Assembly: GCA_016927735.1 (NCBI GenBank)
Contig: JAFGMC010000002.1
Span: 4,290-68,289 of the forward strand
Direction of reading: 5' to 3'
Length of the DNA: 64,000 nt
Source: Alphaproteobacteria bacterium
GTDB taxonomy: Bacteria; Pseudomonadota; Alphaproteobacteria; Rs-D84
Shown piece after piece: positions 4,135 to 53,736 of the stretch; the first letter of the stretch is position 1, and the number at the start of each line of letters is the position of its first letter. The notes beneath the pieces are model-generated. The model saw only the letters and a program-made list of their open reading frames with translations. It was not told where the DNA came from and did no database searches. The translations under genes were made by a program, and so were the position numbers.

Positions 4135-5203
4135 TTATTTCGAAAGCATTGCCAGCATAAAATCGTCCAGGTCGCCGTCCAATACCGCATCAGAATCTGT
4201 TTTCTCAACACCCGTCCGAACATCTTTGACCAATTGATATGGATACAAGACATAATTTCTTATCTGGCTGCCCCATTCGATTTTCTTTTGACCAACCTTG
4301 GCGGCATCTTCTTCTGCGGCGCGCTTTTGTAATTCTAATTCATACAATTTACTGCGCAGCATTTTCATTGCCATTGCACGGTTTTGAATTTGTGATCGTT
4401 CATTCTGACAGGTGACTACTGTATTTGTCGGCAGGTGTGTTATTCGAACCGCACTGTCGGTTTTATTAACACTCTGACCGCCGGCGCCTTGGGATCGATA
4501 AGTATCAATACGCAAATCTTTGTCATTAATTTCAATTTCAATATTATCATCAATATCTGGCCAAACATCCACGGATGCAAAACTGGTTTGACGTTTACCA
4601 TTTGCATTAAAAGGCGAAATTCTGACTAATCTGTGAACACCAGTTTCATTTTTTAACCAACCATAGGCACGCTGTCCACTGATACGATAAGTAACATTTT
4701 TGATTCCGGCGGTATCCCCTTCGTGTTCTTCTATAACCTCAATCGAAAATCCGTGACGTTCTGACCAACGCTGATACATTCGTGACATCATTTGTGCCCA
4801 GTCTTGGGCCTCGGTTCCACCGGCACCCGCCTGGATAAACAAAAATGCACCGTCATTATCTGCAGGTTTATTAAATAAAGTAATAAACTTTGCTGCATGC
4901 GATTTTTTACCCAATTGTTCAATTGCTTTTAGTATCTCTGTATCATTTGGTTCCATTTCGTATAATTCGACCAGATTTTTATAATCGGATTCCAAAGATA
5001 ATAATTCATTCAGTGATTTTTCCAGATTTGATTTCTTTTGCATCAAATTGCGTGCAGCATCAGGATTATCCCAAAGATTGGGGACATCTATGCTTTTATT
5101 TAATTCATTTATTTCGGACTGAAGTTTTTCCGGGTCAAAGAAACCCCCTGATGGCTTCAATGTCATCAGAAATTTGTTTTAAAATATCATTAACTATAAT
5201 CAT
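4135..5203 (-). CDS. prfB: peptide chain release factor 2 (programmed +1 frameshift)
   Basis: Frame 0 reads ATG(5203) MIIVNDILKQISDDIEAIRGFL then TGA. The site is AGGGGG TTT CTT TGA C (CTTTGAC at 5140..5134). The +1 frame continues DPEKLQ... into ORF 4135..5166, which carries SPF and GGQ (SQGAGGQSVNKTDSAVR). Confidence 0.95.
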
Positions 5204-5320
5204 GCAAAGTATATTATCAATTTATTTAATTAAATCAATAATTTTGTAATTTTGAATTTAAATGAATGTTTGCCTTTTTTTTTGCAATATGATAAAATTT
5301 GTTCAATGAGAGAGGGTTTA

Positions 5321-6547
5321 ATGAAGAAATTTTTATTAACAATTGGTATTTTTGCCATTTGTACCTTTGGAAACAATGCTTTTGCGTTGTCCGCAGGAAC
5401 CGTGAGTGGGAATGATACCGCGCGCGTGTCAACCCCAAGCAATGATCGTGGTTATCAAAGTGTTGCCAGTACATATAAAACAAATCAACGTAATACATAT
5501 TATATGGTGACCCAGCCGGATGTTGATACTGCATGTCGTACAAAAATTTACAATTGTTTGGCGGCATATTGTGGTGATGTAACGGTTGTTCCCGGTCAAC
5601 GCGACAGTCGTTGTACTTATTCCACAGAAAGTGAACTTTACAACTATGCTTTATTGTGTTTACAAAAAGATACTGATGTTTTGATGCCCCAGTATAATAC
5701 AGGTACCAGAACCGGAACAGGTGGTATGAATACTGCTGCAAGACTTTGCCCATCGTATGTCCAACAAGAATTAATGTCTTATTTATCTATGGCAAATATG
5801 GCGGAAAAATTGACTAAATCCCGCTCTAGTTTATGTCTTGAACGTCGTCAAGAATTGGAAGCTGCAATGTCTTGTCATTCAATTACATTGTCTTATGGAA
5901 ACGAAACATCAAGTATGCTGAATTCACAATTAACAGATTATTGTGGTTCTGGCGTTCCAGGTGGATCATCAGAAATGGTGACTAAATTTGCTAATGCTGG
6001 GAACGTTGGTGCAAATATTTGGGGTTGGGCTGAAAAGGTTGTTAATTTGGACCTGAATAAAAAAGGTGCAGATTGGCAGGTTGCTGTTGATGCGGTTTTG
6101 GCTGGTTATACAAATCGTATGAATTTGGCATGTGGTGATGATGCAAAGGTGACTACTTCTTCGTATTCTTCTAATAATAGCCAACCGACTAGTTTACAAA
6201 CAGCTGCTGCATTGGCAGTTGGTATGGCGTTTCCAACGACAGAAAAAAATTCTGAAAATATTTATGAATCATTAAATATGTGGCAAGAGGTTCAAAGTGC
6301 ATCTGATGTTTATGACTATGCGACTGCAAAACAGGTTGTACAGGCCGGTTTGACCAATGCTGCGACAACACAAAATGCGTTTTTAAATAGTTCACAAATG
6401 GATAGTATGCAAACATCATATAAACTGGGAACCAAGGTATTTATTCTTCGTGACAGTTCCAGATGTTATATCGTTCCAGTCGCCACATTGGATGCAAAGC
6501 AAAAATCATTGCTGGCGCAATCATTTGCAAACTGTGTAAGTCAATAA
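5321..6547 (+). CDS. secreted Cys-containing protein (408 aa), unknown function
   Basis: ATG at 5321 after GAGAGGG. Signal peptide MKKFLLTIGIFAICTFGNNAFA. 12 Cys in the mature part. The N-terminal motif C-x6-C-x4-C (ACRTKIYNCLAAYC) is shared with the 770-aa protein at 49373..51685. Confidence 0.7.
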   Translation: MKKFLLTIGIFAICTFGNNAFALSAGTVSGNDTARVSTPSNDRGYQSVASTYKTNQRNTYYMVTQPDVDTACRTKIYNCLAAYCGDVTVVPGQRDSRCTYSTESELYNYALLCLQKDTDVLMPQYNTGTRTGTGGMNTAARLCPSYVQQELMSYLSMANMAEKLTKSRSSLCLERRQELEAAMSCHSITLSYGNETSSMLNSQLTDYCGSGVPGGSSEMVTKFANAGNVGANIWGWAEKVVNLDLNKKGADWQVAVDAVLAGYTNRMNLACGDDAKVTTSSYSSNNSQPTSLQTAAALAVGMAFPTTEKNSENIYESLNMWQEVQSASDVYDYATAKQVVQAGLTNAATTQNAFLNSSQMDSMQTSYKLGTKVFILRDSSRCYIVPVATLDAKQKSLLAQSFANCVSQ

Positions 6548-30214: not shown

Positions 30215-30958
30215 ATGTCGTTTAATACTTTTTATATCAACAAATCCAAGAAAAAAGAATTGGGTGTTGAATTGGAACTTGAGGGATTTTCTAATAATTT
30301 CTCTGCAAAAAATGATTTACCAAAAAATATTCAGCAAAAATACATATTTGATCATATTAAAGATGAAAGTGTTGCTGATGATGGAACAGAAATAATATTT
30401 AATCATTTTCCTCTTAATAATTGGGTCCCCAGAGAAATTAAAAAAATCTATAAAATTGTATCATCATTTAAATTACATGCTGGTGAAACAGCCGGTATGC
30501 ACATCAGTTACTCTGGTCCAAATATACACGCTATTTATGATATACATAAACGTGAATGTGAACATATAGACAAAACCAGAGAAAATGGTTTTATTACAGA
30601 TTTATTTCAAACCATTGGGGCCAGAAAAGGTCATTTTAATGGGGTCTTTGTTTATGGTACGGATTATGATGTTTTTGAAGTTGCAAAAAAAGATGATGAA
30701 ATAATTGAAGTTCGTGCCTTTGAATCAACAATGAATCCAGATGTGTTTTATTTTAGACTGTGTATTACACAATACTTATTAAACTATATGGCAAAAAATT
30801 CTTATAATGATATTCCAAAAAGATTATTCCAGGATATGCCTAATCATATTAAAAACATATTTTGGTTTTTAACAATTACTGAAAATCCAAATAAATATGG
30901 TTTTAAAAGAGAATTTATTTATAATCAATTATTTAATAATAATTTAAAAACATATTAA
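30215..30958 (+). CDS. amidoligase-like protein (glutamine-synthetase-fold COOH-NH2 ligase family)
   Basis: Ordered motifs LGVELELEG, DESVADDGTEIIF, TAGMHISYSG and IIEVRAFESTMNPD resemble the Amidoligase_2 / GCS2-like core (E-x-E, D-x-S..G-x-E, G-h-H, E-h-R). Judged by eye only. Confidence 0.5.
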   Translation: MSFNTFYINKSKKKELGVELELEGFSNNFSAKNDLPKNIQQKYIFDHIKDESVADDGTEIIFNHFPLNNWVPREIKKIYKIVSSFKLHAGETAGMHISYSGPNIHAIYDIHKRECEHIDKTRENGFITDLFQTIGARKGHFNGVFVYGTDYDVFEVAKKDDEIIEVRAFESTMNPDVFYFRLCITQYLLNYMAKNSYNDIPKRLFQDMPNHIKNIFWFLTITENPNKYGFKREFIYNQLFNNNLKTY

Positions 30959-30967
30959 GGGAATAAA

Positions 30968-31315
30968 ATGCCAGAATTTATAAAAACTATTGAAGAAATT
31001 GATAAAGATTATTTTTATGTAAAAATTGATTTTGTTGATAATGAAATAGAATGTGCAACATTAATTGGTAAAATAGAAAATGATTCTGCAAAGATATGCA
31101 AATTAAAAACTGAGAAGAAATATCAATTTAAAGGTATTGGTAGAAAACTTGTTAAAGAATTTGAATTAATTGCAAAATCGAAATCATGTAAAAAAATAGA
31201 ATTGGTTTCATCAGATACAGAATCTGATAAATTTTGGAATAAAATGGATAGTTTTAGTCCTGAATCCAGTTCAATGTTTATAAAAAACCTTATTAATAGT
31301 GATTATCATAATTAA
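30968..31315 (+). CDS. small GNAT-family acetyltransferase-like protein
   Basis: 115 aa. Motif A QFKGIGRKLVKEFE and C-terminal FWNKM resemble GNAT. 9 nt downstream of the amidoligase-like gene. Confidence 0.45.
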   Translation: MPEFIKTIEEIDKDYFYVKIDFVDNEIECATLIGKIENDSAKICKLKTEKKYQFKGIGRKLVKEFELIAKSKSCKKIELVSSDTESDKFWNKMDSFSPESSSMFIKNLINSDYHN

Positions 31316-32547
31316 ATCTTGATAAGACCATCTGCAAACTCAATCGAAGCAGGTGTTTTAAAGTTTTTAACACTGGAAATAATTTCATCATCTGTGCGTA
31401 CAATTGCATAGCCACGCATCAAAACATTTTTATACGACAACGAATTCAGCATCTGATCAAGATGCGATACAGCCTGGTTTAATGAAGAAAGCCTGTTCTG
31501 TAAATTTTTTGGAAATCCGCCCAGCAATTCTATTTGCTGTCTGGTTGTTGCAATCTTCCCATTTATAATTATTGCAAAAGTTCGCGATAAATCATCCAAT
31601 CTTTGTGTATGTTCCATTATCAATTGTTTCGGATTTTTTATATTTATACCCGCAACTTTTTGTTTTGCATTTACTAATTTATTTGCAAAATTTCCAGATA
31701 ATCTGTGTGATAAATTATCAATTTCTTGAATCAGTAACAGTTTTGTTGGTACGACTATTTCCGCTGCCATTGTCGGTGTTGCGGCGCGCACATCCGCTGC
31801 AAAATCAATCAGCATCCAATCTGGTTCATGACCAACACCGGATACCAGTGGAATTTTACTAGCTGCTGCAGCACGAACAACAATTTCTTCGGAAAATGGT
31901 AATAAATCTTCCAGTGATCCGCCACCACGCGCAACAATAATCACATCAACATTCTGCATACGATTAAAGTATTCAATACCGGCAGCAACTTCTGCAGCGG
32001 CAGTTGTCCCTTGCACAGTTGCTGGGTATAATATCACATGTACTGGAAAACGCTCGCGCAGTCTATTTTGAATATCCTGGAACGCCGCACCCGTTGGACT
32101 GGTGACAATTCCAATTGTCTGTGGAAAACGTGGCAGTACTTTTTTTCGCGCGTCGTCAAATAAACCCTCTGCTGTGAATTTCTTTTTACGTTCTTCCAAC
32201 ATTTTAAGAATTGCACCAACCCCAGCCATTTCAATTTCATTTGCAATAAGTTGATAATTACTGCGGGCAGGATAGGTGGTAAGTTTTCCAGTTATAATTA
32301 CTTCTGATCCTTCTTCCAGATTAAAAGATACAGGTGTGCCACGCCAAACAATTACAGAAATAGATGATGATGAATCCTTTATCGTCATATAAATATGTCC
32401 AGACGATGCCTTTGTAATCTGGGATAATTCACCACGAATTTTTATAGACGGAAAAGCTGTTTCAACAACGCCCTTTAACAGGGCAGAAGCGTCACTGACG
32501 CTGAAAATCATATCTGGTTTAACAAAAGGTTCTGGTTTTTGTAACAT
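31312..32547 (-). CDS. xseA: exodeoxyribonuclease VII large subunit
   Basis: N-terminal OB fold (VSDASALLKGVVETAFPSIKIRGELSQ...SGHIYMTIKD) and catalytic core (IGIVTSPTGAAFQDI, ARGGGSLEDL). Confidence 0.93.
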   Translation of the reverse strand: MLQKPEPFVKPDMIFSVSDASALLKGVVETAFPSIKIRGELSQITKASSGHIYMTIKDSSSSISVIVWRGTPVSFNLEEGSEVIITGKLTTYPARSNYQLIANEIEMAGVGAILKMLEERKKKFTAEGLFDDARKKVLPRFPQTIGIVTSPTGAAFQDIQNRLRERFPVHVILYPATVQGTTAAAEVAAGIEYFNRMQNVDVIIVARGGGSLEDLLPFSEEIVVRAAAASKIPLVSGVGHEPDWMLIDFAADVRAATPTMAAEIVVPTKLLLIQEIDNLSHRLSGNFANKLVNAKQKVAGINIKNPKQLIMEHTQRLDDLSRTFAIIINGKIATTRQQIELLGGFPKNLQNRLSSLNQAVSHLDQMLNSLSYKNVLMRGYAIVRTDDEIISSVKNFKTPASIEFADGLIKI

Positions 32548-32987
32548 TATTCAAGTCCCGAATATTTTGCAAGAAACATGGATTGTTTTTGAATTTCATT
32601 TGTAAATAATTTTGATTTACCAATACGTGTTTCAATTTTCCCTTTGGAATAGTCATACCTTGACCATTGGTCATAAGTTATATCAAATATTTTACCAGAA
32701 GATTTATGAACAAGCCACCAATGCAATGGTCCAGACATCAAAGTCCAAACTTCTTCTCCACCAGTATTTTTCATAATATAATAACTGGCGCTTAAACAAA
32801 AACCGTTACCAAAATTTTTTATTTCATCACCAAACATAATAATATTTAATTTATCATCAGATATGGCATTTCTTAATTTTTCAACCATATATGGTAATGA
32901 TAATTTTCCCATAAAAACTTTATAATCACCTGATAATTTCACAAGTTTTTGTGTTCCAATATTAAATTCATCTTTTGTTTGTCTCAT
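32547..32987 (-). CDS. Cys-His-Asp small protein, paralog C (transglutaminase-core-like)
   Basis: 146 aa. GFCLSASYY, 25 aa, HWWLV, 13 aa, DITYDQ. The stop overlaps the xseA start by 1 nt. Homologous to the two upstream ORFs. Confidence 0.6.
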   Translation of the reverse strand: MRQTKDEFNIGTQKLVKLSGDYKVFMGKLSLPYMVEKLRNAISDDKLNIIMFGDEIKNFGNGFCLSASYYIMKNTGGEEVWTLMSGPLHWWLVHKSSGKIFDITYDQWSRYDYSKGKIETRIGKSKLFTNEIQKQSMFLAKYSGLE

Positions 32988-33047
32988 AAAATGATTCTAT
33001 CAAAATAGAATAAAGAATTCAAATTTATAATATAAAGCATATTTTTA

Positions 33048-33560
33048 CTATTTATGATTCAGGTTTATTCCTATAAATTCGGCGAATTTATATGCACGTT
33101 GGAATTTAAAATTTGAATCCGCATATTTACCGAGCTCGTAAGGGATTTCAAAATATTGACCATATTCATTCATAGACTGGTCAAATGTAAAATCTAGTTT
33201 AGAAAAATCATATACATTTTCTACCCATACATGATCCTTTAATCCACCCATTTCATTATTTGATATCTGTTTCAATCGCCATATTTCTGAACCATCTGGT
33301 GCACGAAATAAATGATTCCAAATATAACTGGAAATACCGCAAAAACCTGCAGAAAATCTGCAATTTTTAAAACGTTCTTCTTCGTATTTATGTAGTAAAA
33401 GTTGCTCGCGAATTTTTTTATCTTTAAAACCTTCACGAATTAAATAAACTATTTGTTCCATATCATAACACGCAGAAAAACCATCCGGCATTTTCATATT
33501 TCTTACTTTATCAACCAACTTTTCAGTTGCAGCATCATATAATTTTAATTTATTTAACAT
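33048..33560 (-). CDS. Cys-His-Asp small protein, paralog B (divergent)
   Basis: 170 aa. Shares KLYDAATEKLV, GFCGISSYIW, HVWV and DFTFDQ with the neighbours. Confidence 0.6.
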   Translation of the reverse strand: MLNKLKLYDAATEKLVDKVRNMKMPDGFSACYDMEQIVYLIREGFKDKKIREQLLLHKYEEERFKNCRFSAGFCGISSYIWNHLFRAPDGSEIWRLKQISNNEMGGLKDHVWVENVYDFSKLDFTFDQSMNEYGQYFEIPYELGKYADSNFKFQRAYKFAEFIGINLNHK

Positions 33561-33619
33561 GTTTTGATTTTATCAGAAAAAATATAAACTTCAAATTTAT
33601 AAATTATTATTATTAATCC

Positions 33620-34075
33620 CTATAAATCTGCACATTTTCCAAGAATAAAAGCCTGTTCTTGGATATATTTTGCAAATTTTTTGTCTTCTCCAATACTTTG
33701 CTCCGGAACACCATATTTATAATCAAAATCATATGGGAACTGACAATATGTTATATCAAATGGTTTATTTGTTATCTTGTCTACTAACCACCAATGATCA
33801 GGATCTCTCATAATTTTCCAATTTGAACCACGACCAGTGTTTTCATATAAATAATAACTACTGACCATACAAAAACCTTCTGAAAAAGAATCATTTTCAC
33901 CAACAATATATGCGCCAAAAATTTTAATATGAGTTTGTTCTTTTTTAAAAGATTCTCTTAATGAATAAACAATATCTGGAAATGAATATTTGCCAAATTT
34001 AGAAAACTTGTAGTTTTCAGCTTGTTTTACAAGTTTCTGTGTTGCTGCATCATATAATTTTAATCTGTTTGACAT
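33620..34075 (-). CDS. Cys-His-Asp small protein, paralog A
   Basis: 151 aa. KLYDAATQKLV, GFCMVSSYY, HWWLV, DITYCQ. Confidence 0.6.
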   Translation of the reverse strand: MSNRLKLYDAATQKLVKQAENYKFSKFGKYSFPDIVYSLRESFKKEQTHIKIFGAYIVGENDSFSEGFCMVSSYYLYENTGRGSNWKIMRDPDHWWLVDKITNKPFDITYCQFPYDFDYKYGVPEQSIGEDKKFAKYIQEQAFILGKCADL

Positions 34076-34112
34076 CTTCTAATTCTAACATAAAAAAGTT
34101 TAAAAACCAAAT

Positions 34113-35153
34113 TTATAACTCTGTCAGTGGCCAACGGGGACGAGGAGCAATCGGTTCTTTGACTACTTTGCCAACTAGATAGTTTTCAATTCCAGCCCAG
34201 GCAATCATTGCGCCATTATCTGTACATAAATTAAGTGGTGGGGCAGCAAACTGCATTTTACGTTCAATTGCCATTTTTTCCATAACAGCGCGTATTTCCG
34301 TATTTTTTGCAACACCACCTGCAACAACTAATGTTTTTGGTGCCGCATCTTTGACCCTGTCGTCATCCAGGGCATTGTTTAGTCGATTAATGATACAATC
34401 TACCACTGATGCCTGAAAAGACGCGCAAAAGTTATTTATAAAGCATTCATCATTATGCAGTGTCGGATATTTTGCCAACATTGTTCTGGCTGATGTTTTG
34501 ATACCTGAAAAAGAGAAATCACATCCAGGCTTATCACAAAGTGGACGTGGAAACTTAAAAGCCTTTGGGTTACCAGATTGTGCGCGTTTATCAATTATTG
34601 GACCACCGGGATATCCCAGACCCAACATTTTTGATACTTTATCAAAAGCCTCACCCGCACTGTCATCCAATGTTTGACCGATTAATTCATATTTACCGAC
34701 ACCATTTGCCAATAAAATCATTGTATGTCCGCCACTGGCCAGTATTAATAAATAAGGAAAAGGTACATCATTTGTTAAACGTGGGACCAATGCATGCCCT
34801 TCCAAATGATTCACAGCAACCAACGGTTTGTCTGTTGATTGTGCAATACCAGTCGCCGCCATCCAACCAACCAAAACACCACCAATTAAGCCCGGACCAG
34901 CAGTTGCCGCAATTACATCAATATCTTCGATTGTTTTTCCAGCATCGATAAGTGTTTTATTTATAACCTCATCAATTGCCAATATATGCGCACGTGCTGC
35001 CAATTCTGGTACAACACCACCATATTTTTGATGCTCTGGGATTTGTGAATAAATTATATGAGACAGTATATTTCTGTCAGAATCAACGACTGCTGCTGCT
35101 GTCTCGTCACAACTGGATTCAATACCCAGACAAAGAATTTTTTTATCAATCAT
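34113..35153 (-). CDS. tsaD: tRNA N6-adenosine threonylcarbamoyltransferase
   Basis: ILCLGIESSCDETAAAVV, HLEGH and GGVAKN patterns of Kae1/TsaD. Confidence 0.95.
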   Translation of the reverse strand: MIDKKILCLGIESSCDETAAAVVDSDRNILSHIIYSQIPEHQKYGGVVPELAARAHILAIDEVINKTLIDAGKTIEDIDVIAATAGPGLIGGVLVGWMAATGIAQSTDKPLVAVNHLEGHALVPRLTNDVPFPYLLILASGGHTMILLANGVGKYELIGQTLDDSAGEAFDKVSKMLGLGYPGGPIIDKRAQSGNPKAFKFPRPLCDKPGCDFSFSGIKTSARTMLAKYPTLHNDECFINNFCASFQASVVDCIINRLNNALDDDRVKDAAPKTLVVAGGVAKNTEIRAVMEKMAIERKMQFAAPPLNLCTDNGAMIAWAGIENYLVGKVVKEPIAPRPRWPLTEL

Positions 35154-35863
35154 TTTATTTTATACAGGGCAATACCCAGGTTTGTTTTACTCTTTTTACG
35201 CGCATTTACATAATCGAAAAAGTTTATATCAACAACTTTTCCACCATCCAAAGACGCGTGACGCAATATACCATTTGTTAACAAAAATCCCATATGAGAA
35301 ACCGCCAAATCAGTACCCAGTTTATCATGTATTTTTGGATTATCCATTACAAACAATACCAGCAAGGTTTTATCTGTTTTTATTTTATTTAAATCGGAAT
35401 AGGGTATATATTCAATCTGCGAGCTTACTTCTGGAAAGTCCGTATCAATATTGTGAACTTTTTTAAACCATTCTTTTTTATTTATTGTAAAATTGCGTAT
35501 TTTTGTTTTACCGAATAATTTATTTACATTTTCAATAATTTCGGAATTATTTTTCACCCAATCGTATTCAATAAAATGATTGCGATTCAGAAAATCTATT
35601 TTACTATCTTTGTATCTGATTTTATTTAATTTCGCCAGATTGCCATCTGCCAATACAGTTTCAACAAAAGTCACACAATCAAATGCATCATATCTTATTA
35701 AAGGGTCATTGTCCGGGGCGTTCTCTTCGCCCAGCGGATCAGATATATATTTAACATCCAAGTATTCACAACCAATATTATCACATCTATGCAAAAATGT
35801 GCATGATGACAAAACAAATGTTAATAAAAATATAAGATTTTTTTTATTTTTCATAACCTGCAT
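35150..35863 (-). CDS. DUF1460-family lipoprotein (N-acetylmuramoyl-L-alanine amidase-like)
   Basis: Lipobox LTFVLSSC. The patterns FDCVTFVETVLA and HMGFLL...LRHAS recall DUF1460. Confidence 0.55.
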   Translation of the reverse strand: MQVMKNKKNLIFLLTFVLSSCTFLHRCDNIGCEYLDVKYISDPLGEENAPDNDPLIRYDAFDCVTFVETVLADGNLAKLNKIRYKDSKIDFLNRNHFIEYDWVKNNSEIIENVNKLFGKTKIRNFTINKKEWFKKVHNIDTDFPEVSSQIEYIPYSDLNKIKTDKTLLVLFVMDNPKIHDKLGTDLAVSHMGFLLTNGILRHASLDGGKVVDINFFDYVNARKKSKTNLGIALYKIK

Positions 35864-37999: not shown

Positions 38000-38443
38000 T
38001 TAAATAACTATTATTCCTTTTTCAATATCAACATTCGCGCCAATAAAAGAAATCATTTTACCAGATTCCATTTCCAAAATATCCCCAGCGCCAAAGTTTT
38101 GAATAGATTCAACTTTTCCTTGTTCTTCACCATTTATTATAACCGTCATACCTATCAGATCAGTTTGATAATATTCACCGTTTGGTAACGCGGGCAGGGA
38201 TTCACGATTGATAAACAATTCTGTTCCACGCAATTCTTCTGCTGCATTTCTATCATTTATACCAGAAATTTTACAAATAGCAACATCACGTCCAGCCGTA
38301 CGTATAAATTTTAAATCAATATTTTCAATTTTTAAAGTTTGTAAATCCGAAGGTTCAGAAGTAAAAGTCTGAACACGAACATCGCCACCCAAACCTTGGG
38401 CTGCTACAATTTTACCAATTAAAATCTTTGATTTTTCTGACAT
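38000..38443 (-). CDS. rimM: 16S rRNA processing protein RimM
   Basis: Start trimmed to ATG 38443 (MSEKSKILIGKIVAAQGLGGDVRV). PRC barrel C-terminus. Confidence 0.9.
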   Translation of the reverse strand: MSEKSKILIGKIVAAQGLGGDVRVQTFTSEPSDLQTLKIENIDLKFIRTAGRDVAICKISGINDRNAAEELRGTELFINRESLPALPNGEYYQTDLIGMTVIINGEEQGKVESIQNFGAGDILEMESGKMISFIGANVDIEKGIIVI

Positions 38444-52887: not shown

Positions 52888-53736
52888 TCAACATGATTTT
52901 TGTACCGCGCGCAAATGTGCAGACCGTGCACGTAGATTATTCTCTAATTCTTGTTCTGATGGCATAAAAGTTTTTAACAATTTGAATTTTGCAGGTTCAA
53001 TTTCTGGCATTCTGGGATCGCCAAGTGCGGTTGCCCATTCACGAAATACATTTTTTACCAATCTATCTTCCAGCGAATGAAAAGTCACACAAACACAAAT
53101 TCCACCAGTTTTTAAACGAGCGGGTACACTTTCCAGCGCGCGACGTATTTCACCCAACTCATCATTAACTGCAATTCGCAAGGCTTGAAAAACCGGCGCA
53201 ATATCTTTTGGATTATGAACCAGTTCTTTTAATTCAAAAGTTGTTTTTGGTAACTTTTCTTTAATTACCCTGGCAATTGGCATCGCTTTTTTAATATCCC
53301 CAAAATCATGTAATATTTTTGCCATTTCAGAAATCGATGAATTTTCTATTAATTCAGCAGCACTTTGACCTGTACTTTCCATACGCATATCCAATGGACC
53401 ATCAAAACGAAATGAAAACCCGCGTTCACCTTCATCAATTTGCATAGATGATATCCCCAGGTCAAAAACAATTGCATCCACAGTTTCATTTATATCTGAT
53501 ATTTTCGAGAAAGGTTTATTTATAAATTTGAAATTATTTGGAAATTCATTCTTGATGATATCTACTGTACTTTGAACATTTGGATCACGATCAAACGCAA
53601 TCACATTTGCGCCAGCAGCCAAAAAAGCCCGGGTATACCCACCAGCCCCAAAAGTACAATCAATGATTGTTTTGTCTTTAACATCGCCAAGAGTTTCCAA
53701 AACTTTATCAATAAGAACAGGAATGTGTTTCATCAT
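52888..53736 (-). CDS. rsmH: 16S rRNA (cytosine1402-N4)-methyltransferase
   Basis: HIPVL, DCTFGAGGYTRA, FDLGISSMQID, SFHSLEDR pattern. Confidence 0.93.
   Translation of the reverse strand: MMKHIPVLIDKVLETLGDVKDKTIIDCTFGAGGYTRAFLAAGANVIAFDRDPNVQSTVDIIKNEFPNNFKFINKPFSKISDINETVDAIVFDLGISSMQIDEGERGFSFRFDGPLDMRMESTGQSAAELIENSSISEMAKILHDFGDIKKAMPIARVIKEKLPKTTFELKELVHNPKDIAPVFQALRIAVNDELGEIRRALESVPARLKTGGICVCVTFHSLEDRLVKNVFREWATALGDPRMPEIEPAKFKLLKTFMPSEQELENNLRARSAHLRAVQKSC

Follow-up and report, generated by a model that had tools for sequence, protein, structure and literature searches.

The closest described relatives of the proteins considered here are the YunG-like families of Pfam, PF24585 (Bacillus subtilis YunG) and PF24591 (Phage_YunG-like), whose members are widespread in bacteria, phages and mobile elements and have neither an assigned function nor a solved structure. 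Three tandem genes encoding proteins related to these families are present on the minus strand, between tsaD and xseA, of a 64 kb stretch of DNA from an uncultured gut alphaproteobacterium (contig JAFGMC010000002.1; the whole stretch is referred to below as the window). The three products have in common with both Pfam families a homologous core of approximately 115 amino acids (aa) and the signature G-x-C, H-x-[WYF], D-x-T-x-x-Q-[FY]. They differ from them in possessing a clade-specific N-terminal helix with a conserved Y-D-x-A-T motif and in their genomic setting, the genes being chromosomally fixed between tsaD and xseA whereas the compact YunG-type members examined are borne by phages or islands. 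A second comparison is with the enzymes of the papain clan (Transglut_core, PNGase, NlpC/P60 and arylamine N-acetyltransferase), in which, as in the three copies, conserved residues occur in the order Cys-His-Asp, with the Cys at a helix N-terminus, the His and Asp on consecutive strands, and motifs resembling G-x-C, H-A-W and D-P-T. The three copies differ from these enzymes in having a far smaller sheet, in being largely helical and in carrying an extra invariant Gln five residues past the Asp. We consider the three genes to represent an N-terminally extended, chromosomally fixed YunG-like branch whose members are probably thiol-dependent enzymes, expressed from strong leaderless promoters together with exonuclease VII, and assign this reading a probability of roughly 0.55. 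What is new here is a variant branch of a family that is known but uncharacterised.

The three genes were recognized as open reading frames (ORFs), copy 1 (33620..34075, minus strand) encoding a type-A YunG-like protein of 151 aa, copy 2 (33048..33560, minus strand) a type-B protein of 170 aa and copy 3 (32547..32987, minus strand) a divergent type-A (A') protein of 146 aa. The conserved upstream neighbour is tsaD (34113..35153, minus strand; Pfam TsaD PF00814, E 8.6e-90), and downstream lies xseA, encoding the large subunit of exonuclease VII (31312..32547, minus strand; Pfam Exonuc_VII_L PF02601, E 6.6e-85). Copy 1 is identical in sequence to P0001, a hypothetical protein from an NCBI metagenome-assembled genome (MAG) of Alphaproteobacteria. 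In BLASTP comparisons copy 1 was 41% identical to copy 3 (E 1e-33) and 33% identical to copy 2 (E 1e-14), with 25% identity between copies 2 and 3 (E 5e-5). ORFs, Pfam-identified neighbours and pairwise matches therefore all agree with a preliminary description of this region, which had reported three mutually homologous minus-strand ORFs of 151, 170 and 146 aa between tsaD and xseA. The same description had noted the lack of a signal peptide and an overlap of the last copy with the start of xseA. Both hold: no signal peptide or transmembrane segment was found in the three copies (maximum 19-residue hydropathy <=0.63), and at a TAATG junction the stop codon of copy 3 shares 1 nucleotide (nt) with the ATG of xseA.

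Direct comparison of the copies with Pfam, PHROGs, NCBIfam and PADLOC produced noise only, the best matches being to Hisat_C (E 0.28), T3RM_EcoP15I_C (E 0.038) and REase_II (E 0.0028 over 40 residues), and the copies themselves did not match the YunG Pfam profile (gathering score 27 bits) even at E up to 10. A word-indexed search likewise retrieved only five close relatives, one of them the identical NCBI entry. An exhaustive search of 1.84 billion representatives with a profile built from the copies and their close relatives recovered 149 relatives at E up to 1e-3. When 142 relatives were scanned against Pfam, 75 matched PF24585 and 4 matched PF24591, and no further Pfam family recurred among those scanned. 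The type-A half of P0007, a natural tandem fusion, scored 35.9 bits against YunG. Alignment by hhalign of the type-A clade with compact members of approximately 125 aa gave a probability of 99.6% (E 3.5e-24) across residues 32-151 of copy 1; YunG was matched by 13 of the 24 compact members in that alignment, among which P0160 scored 28.1 bits. The profile retrieval, the score of P0007 and the hhalign result together indicate that the copies are YunG-like domains bearing a clade-specific N-terminal helix, and by these profile comparisons they are assigned to an N-terminally extended branch of the uncharacterised YunG-like family (PF24585, PF24591).

Each copy is predicted to be a small soluble alpha+beta protein in which the only strongly conserved residues are those of a Cys / His-x-Trp / Asp-x-Thr-x-x-Gln constellation. 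Residues were counted over approximately 150 representatives using the numbering of copy 1, and C69 was conserved in 145 of 147, H94 in 131 of 140, D107 in 133 of 136, T109 in 132 of 135 and Q112 in 131 of 134. When the copies are aligned with mobile-element members of approximately 20% identity, no columns other than G, C, H, D, T, Q and the start Met are invariant. Loss of the Cys, His and Asp in homologues from other genomes had been named in the preliminary description as an outcome that would count against a Cys-His-Asp active site; instead the three residues are near-invariant in about 150 divergent homologues. On the minus strand of the window they are encoded at 33869..33871 (Cys69), 33794..33796 (His94) and 33755..33757 (Asp107) in copy 1, at 33339..33341 (Cys74), 33231..33233 (His110) and 33192..33194 (Asp123) in copy 2, and at 32796..32798 (Cys64), 32721..32723 (His89) and 32682..32684 (Asp102) in copy 3. 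The separation of His and Asp is 13 aa throughout, and that of Cys and His is 25 aa in copies 1 and 3 and 36 aa in copy 2, such that the motifs earlier described as shared are indeed present in all copies, with the spacing in copy 2 falling outside the 25-30 aa originally given.

An AlphaFold2 model of copy 1 (predicted local distance difference test, pLDDT, 85.6; predicted template modelling score, pTM, 0.84) was assigned by DSSP a helix at residues 68-79, which includes Cys69, a strand at 94-99, which begins with His94, and a short strand at 105-106 followed by Asp107. The model of a compact member, P0155 (pLDDT 91.5, pTM 0.87), has a helix at 42-52 beginning with Cys42, a strand at 71-77 that includes His72, and a strand at 83-84 followed by Asp85. 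In both models the Cys opens a helix, the His is found at the start of the second strand and the Asp directly follows a short third strand, the predicted fold being otherwise mostly helical with a sheet of only three strands. A Cys at a helix N-terminus with the His and Asp on following strands is the layout of triads of the papain/transglutaminase type, and in these two confident models the predicted placement of the three residues matches that layout. As judged from the models, a thiol-nucleophile active site is the best reading of the Cys-His-Asp set. The constellation would then form the active site of a thiol-dependent hydrolase or transferase, similar to a minimal triad of the papain/transglutaminase type, and, if the triad is catalytic, the family would provide a new minimal thiol-enzyme scaffold.

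It had been proposed from the motifs that the copies possess a transglutaminase-like core and are true homologous members of the transglutaminase-like/papain fold, acting as thiol amidases, transamidases or peptidases. The motifs G-x-C-x-x-[FS], H-x-W and D-x-T are look-alikes of those in such enzymes and occur in the same Cys-His-Asp order, the secondary-structure placement agrees, and the spacings of 25-36 and 13 aa lie within the range for PNGase-type cores. The sub-threshold lists from Foldseek searches also include BpJOS (ranks 1-2), Tse1/Tae1 (several ranks), yeast PNGase (rank 48) and, in the first search, Ceg10 (rank 3). However, these matches are at noise level (E >0.5, probability <=0.08, template modelling score, TM, <=0.24), nothing in the PDB being significant (best E 0.57 for the copy 1 model and 1.6 for the compact model), although Foldseek is possibly insensitive to a core of approximately 60 residues. 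A search of BFVD returned one probable, nameless family member (A0A8S0IAK0, E 0.014, TM 0.50) and was otherwise uninformative. Transglut_core, NlpC/P60, CHAP and other papain-clan Pfam families matched none of 142 members at E up to 1, nor any of the copies, and PDB sequence searches with two profiles gave chance matches only (an EF-hand thioredoxin and a glucosylceramidase) and nothing relevant to this fold. The mostly helical prediction with its three-stranded sheet also argues against membership. Since no profile and no solved structure matches, homology to transglutaminase/papain folds is unproven and, in our estimation, rather unlikely; of the original proposal, the conserved Cys/His/Asp and their papain-like placement in the models stand, whereas the clan assignment has found no match in profile or structure. 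By this analogy the resemblance is taken to concern a possible mode of action and not family membership, and a papain-like site could have arisen either by very remote descent or by convergence.

The same three residues could alternatively be ligands for Zn or Fe, in which case each copy would be a small metalloenzyme or a binding module stabilised by metal. All three residue types commonly bind metals, and exactly three such near-invariant residues would leave one coordination site for water or substrate. We regard this as improbable, as a second Cys or His is missing, as are typical metal-binding motifs of the CxxC or HExxH kind, the combination of a helix-N-terminal Cys with His and Asp on strands is met more typically in nucleophile triads, and the invariant Thr and Gln are better suited to substrate or oxyanion contacts.

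The genomic setting of the branch was surveyed in 32 related loci representing 25 reference species. The order tsaD - family gene(s) - xseA, with one to three family genes, was found in all 32, usually with recN next on the opposite strand. A position within a housekeeping operon, initially thought to be unusual, is thus the same in each of the related loci examined. In 21 of the 25 distinct loci that contain both genes (all but L006, L019, L020 and L023), the distance between the stop codon of the final family gene and the start of xseA is -4 to +5 nt; tsaD and the family gene next to it are mostly 12-55 nt apart. The genes are core chromosomal genes, fixed between tsaD and xseA in one to three copies of the old subtypes A, B and C, with the last copy predicted to be translationally coupled to xseA. 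This lineage offers a stable core-gene example of a YunG-like family, with a candidate active site, a fixed partner in xseA and several old paralogue types.

A 12-mer, TTATAAATTTGR, is present upstream of all three copies at 34107..34118, 33591..33602 and 33019..33030, ending 30-31 nt before each ATG. Four matches occur in the window against 0.25 expected, and none of 100 shuffles reached four. The fourth, the exact copy TTATAAATTTGA at 53520..53531 (plus strand), lies in an apparent opposite-strand coding sequence without a downstream -10 and ATG arrangement and was judged a chance match. An upstream motif before each of the three genes had been reported previously, correctly apart from two start coordinates that were out by one, and TTATAAAT had been put forward as a candidate -10 element. 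This assignment was rejected: spacing, the presence of TG and conservation between species all favour a -35 within the 12-mer, with the extended -10 as a distinct element 6 nt upstream of each ATG. The aligned block consists of TTATAA, 2-3 nt, a -35 of the form TTG(A/G)(A/T)(T/G), 16-17 nt, TGnTA(G/A)AAT, exactly 6 nt and the ATG. Because the coding sequences are saturated at synonymous sites, the 12-mer must be held by selection.

For copy 1 the promoter-like block (34082..34118, minus strand), identified by alignment and pattern match, comprises TTATAA at 34113..34118, the -35 TTGGTT at 34105..34110, a 17-nt spacer and the extended -10 TGtTAGAAT at 34082..34090, followed by 6 nt and the ATG at 34075; here the TTATAA contains the tsaD stop codon and the last tsaD codons form part of the block. 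The block of copy 2 (33567..33602, minus strand) has the -35 TTGAAG at 33589..33594, a 16-nt spacer, the extended -10 TGaTAAAAT at 33567..33575, 6 nt and the ATG at 33560, and that of copy 3 (32994..33030, minus strand) has the -35 TTGAAT at 33017..33022, a 17-nt spacer, the extended -10 TGaTAGAAT at 32994..33002, 6 nt and the ATG at 32987. Both of the latter were also detected by a promoter scan, each with TG, in addition to alignment and pattern match. The pattern TGNTANAATN6ATG occurs exactly three times in the 64 kb, at the three start codons, and a Shine-Dalgarno-like sequence precedes none of the three family genes as against 21 of 51 large ORFs in the window. A -10 ending 6 nt before the ATG implies leaderless mRNAs, and from these arrangements each copy in the window probably has its own sigma-70 promoter and is probably expressed from a leaderless mRNA. 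The promoter of copy 3 probably also drives xseA.

The same layout precedes orthologues elsewhere, for example TTGCAA, 17 nt, TGCTATAAT, 6 nt and ATG. Like other leaderless genes with an extended -10, the copies have TGnTAnAAT 6 nt before the ATG and no Shine-Dalgarno sequence. They differ in that the layout is conserved for one family across many species, an extended -10 being found 5-8 nt before the ATG of 27 of 46 family genes, whose starts were picked among nearby ATGs with knowledge of the motif, as compared with 1 of the 279 remaining ORFs of >=120 aa at these loci. They differ also in having, behind the predicted leaderless cistron, an xseA gene that is probably coupled to it in translation. 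Where a type-B gene directly follows tsaD, an extended -10 promoter is usually missing and the gene is probably transcribed together with tsaD. The conserved unit would thus consist of the promoter, a leaderless YunG-like gene and xseA, and the family provides an unusually clean comparative case combining a strong extended -10, predicted leaderless expression and a coupled downstream housekeeping gene. Elsewhere in the window, -10-like boxes 5-8 nt before an ATG without a Shine-Dalgarno sequence were observed at recN (28510), 5306, 7801 and 791 on the plus strand and at 38443 on the minus strand. With the three family genes this amounts to 8 of 51 large ORFs, which suggests that this organism makes fairly frequent use of leaderless mRNAs.

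The coupling to xseA raises the possibility that the putative enzyme shares a process with exonuclease VII, such as the processing of DNA ends or DNA adducts, and compact relatives in the replication and recombination modules of phages fit this idea. On a T4-like phage contig (L037) a compact relative has gp47/gp46 immediately downstream and UvsY/UvsW upstream, with a gp45-like gene at the far end of the locus. A tblastn search with copy 1 found no match in phage and plasmid collections. Relatives were detected by tblastn in 40 phage genomes, among them those of 26 Caulobacter phiCbK-like and 11 Synechococcus phages, the latter being T4-like in the records examined (S-PRM1, S-CAM9). In CcrRogue the relative is located between DNA polymerase I and an exonuclease, and in S-CAM9 between gp46 and gp45; in all listed phage records the match is either annotated as a hypothetical protein or unannotated. 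Together the phage contexts and the coupling to xseA weakly suggest a role in nucleic-acid processing. In a bolder form of this idea, YunG-like proteins would be small thiol enzymes of a previously unrecognised kind, working on nucleic-acid ends or adducts alongside exonuclease VII; for example, a protein or peptide remnant, or another block, may be removed from DNA ends before exonuclease VII digestion. Such a class would explain both the coupling to xseA in one lineage and the compact phage versions beside gp46/gp47, DNA polymerase and exonucleases, but we think it unlikely to be correct.

A number of observations weigh against the interpretation of the branch as thiol-dependent enzymes working with exonuclease VII. 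Other compact relatives are located in an integrase island, in an island with type III restriction-modification, resolvase and umuDC genes and in an IS605/YopX element, and these mobile-island members show no link to DNA repair. Large phage genomes are rich in replication genes in any case, and adjacency to xseA may reflect promoter sharing only. Leaderless-type promoters are also present at 5 of 48 other ORFs in the window, recN included, and this mechanism is therefore used more widely by the organism, of which it is in part a general trait. As to catalysis, the Foldseek searches of the PDB described above gave nothing significant, so that a triad has no backing from a known enzyme fold, and some members lack residues of the putative triad (Cys in 2 of 147, His in 9 of 140). 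At locus L005 the second paralogue (4179..4394, partial at the contig end) reads K-G-F-L-T where other members have G-F-C, and from its sequence may be a natural Cys-less variant. A search of the literature on YunG and YunG-like proteins found no relevant work.

Some of these points are shared with a further alternative, in which the copies are non-catalytic accessory, regulatory or immunity-type partners, for example of exonuclease VII, whose paralogues have diversified for different partners. The tight translational coupling of the last copy to xseA, the coexistence of several old subtypes, the one paralogue apparently without the Cys and the frequent occurrence of relatives in phages and mobile islands, both rich in inhibitors and immunity proteins, would all be accommodated. 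Nevertheless, a near-invariant polar set of Cys, His, Asp, Thr and Gln at approximately 20% identity is unusual for pure binders, and the three copies resemble neither XseB nor any PADLOC defence model, no Pfam or NCBIfam match of any kind, XseB included, having been obtained for them. A crude motif scan revealed no xseB-like ORF in the window, which says little for 64 kb. We consider a purely non-catalytic role quite improbable.

The distribution and age of the copies were assessed by scanning 185,579 reference genomes for the subfamily, which was present in 25 reference species, with more examples on metagenome contigs that were examined in addition. The carriers are nearly all uncultured gut or rumen Alphaproteobacteria (Candidatus Enterousia, a "Rickettsiales" MAG and others). 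Related loci hold one or two copies and the window is the only locus seen with three; in its closest relative, L005, the contig ends in the second copy, which gives a count of at least two. Clustering separates three subtypes: A (about 151 aa; HWWL / FDITYTQF), B (about 182 aa; FSAGFCGIASY / HVWLEN / LDLTFDQS) and C (about 170 aa; HHWL or HHYL). Copy 2 groups with the 182-198 aa type-B genes of L001, L008, L011, L013, L019 and L020, and is orthologous to type-B genes of other species. Copy 3 is closer to P0008, which is encoded next to xseA at L042 (49% identity), than to copy 1 (41%). Comparison of dN/dS among the window paralogues is uninformative, synonymous sites being saturated. Among orthologue pairs, omega was 0.04-0.09 for type A, 0.09-0.14 for type B and 0.10-0.24 for type C, and all subtypes are under purifying selection. 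The middle copy had been suspected, from its divergence, of being inactive or decaying. Type B keeps the triad at an omega of about 0.09-0.14, which marks copy 2 as a paralogue that is maintained rather than decaying.

By these comparisons the three genes represent old paralogue types with orthologues elsewhere and are not products of a recent triplication, and the term tandem triplication used in the preliminary description is misleading. Recent local triplication, with a decaying middle copy and the upstream 12-mer as a leftover of duplication, would account for the tandem arrangement and the common 12-mer, but it is already contradicted by the results and has next to no likelihood, given copies that are only 25-41% identical with saturated synonymous sites, closer orthologues of every type in other species, purifying selection on type B, a 12-mer kept at 11-12 of 12 positions beside such diverged genes, which must be under selection, and the same promoter layout in other species.

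Several additional features of the locus and of the wider family were recorded. A gene for an AmiA-like, lipoprotein-like product (35150..35863, minus strand; PF07313, E 3.5e-28) shares 4 nt (ATGA) with the start of tsaD, and most related loci likewise have an AmiA-like gene upstream of tsaD. A very AT-rich stretch (GC content 0.20-0.29) at 30215..31315, flanked by recN and the 3' end of xseA, contains two plus-strand genes, an orphan ORF of 247 aa without a Pfam match and a GNAT acetyltransferase of 115 aa; as recN directly abuts xseA in several related loci, these genes look like a local insertion. At L023 xseA is apparently split (4441..5667) into ORFs at 4441..4788 and 5062..5667, with 69 nt to the family gene, and may be a pseudogene or reflect an assembly error. 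Within the wider family, P0144 combines a GNAT domain with a YunG-like domain carrying a D-P-T motif, and the occurrence of GNAT both in this protein and near xseA in the window is probably a coincidence. P0129 (1070 aa) combines a YunG-like domain with a SWIM zinc finger and a 2H phosphoesterase (LigT/Acb1-like). Finally, P0007 and P0018 are single ORFs that each fuse two family domains, the second domain of P0007 being type-A-like and the first domain of P0018 type-B-like.

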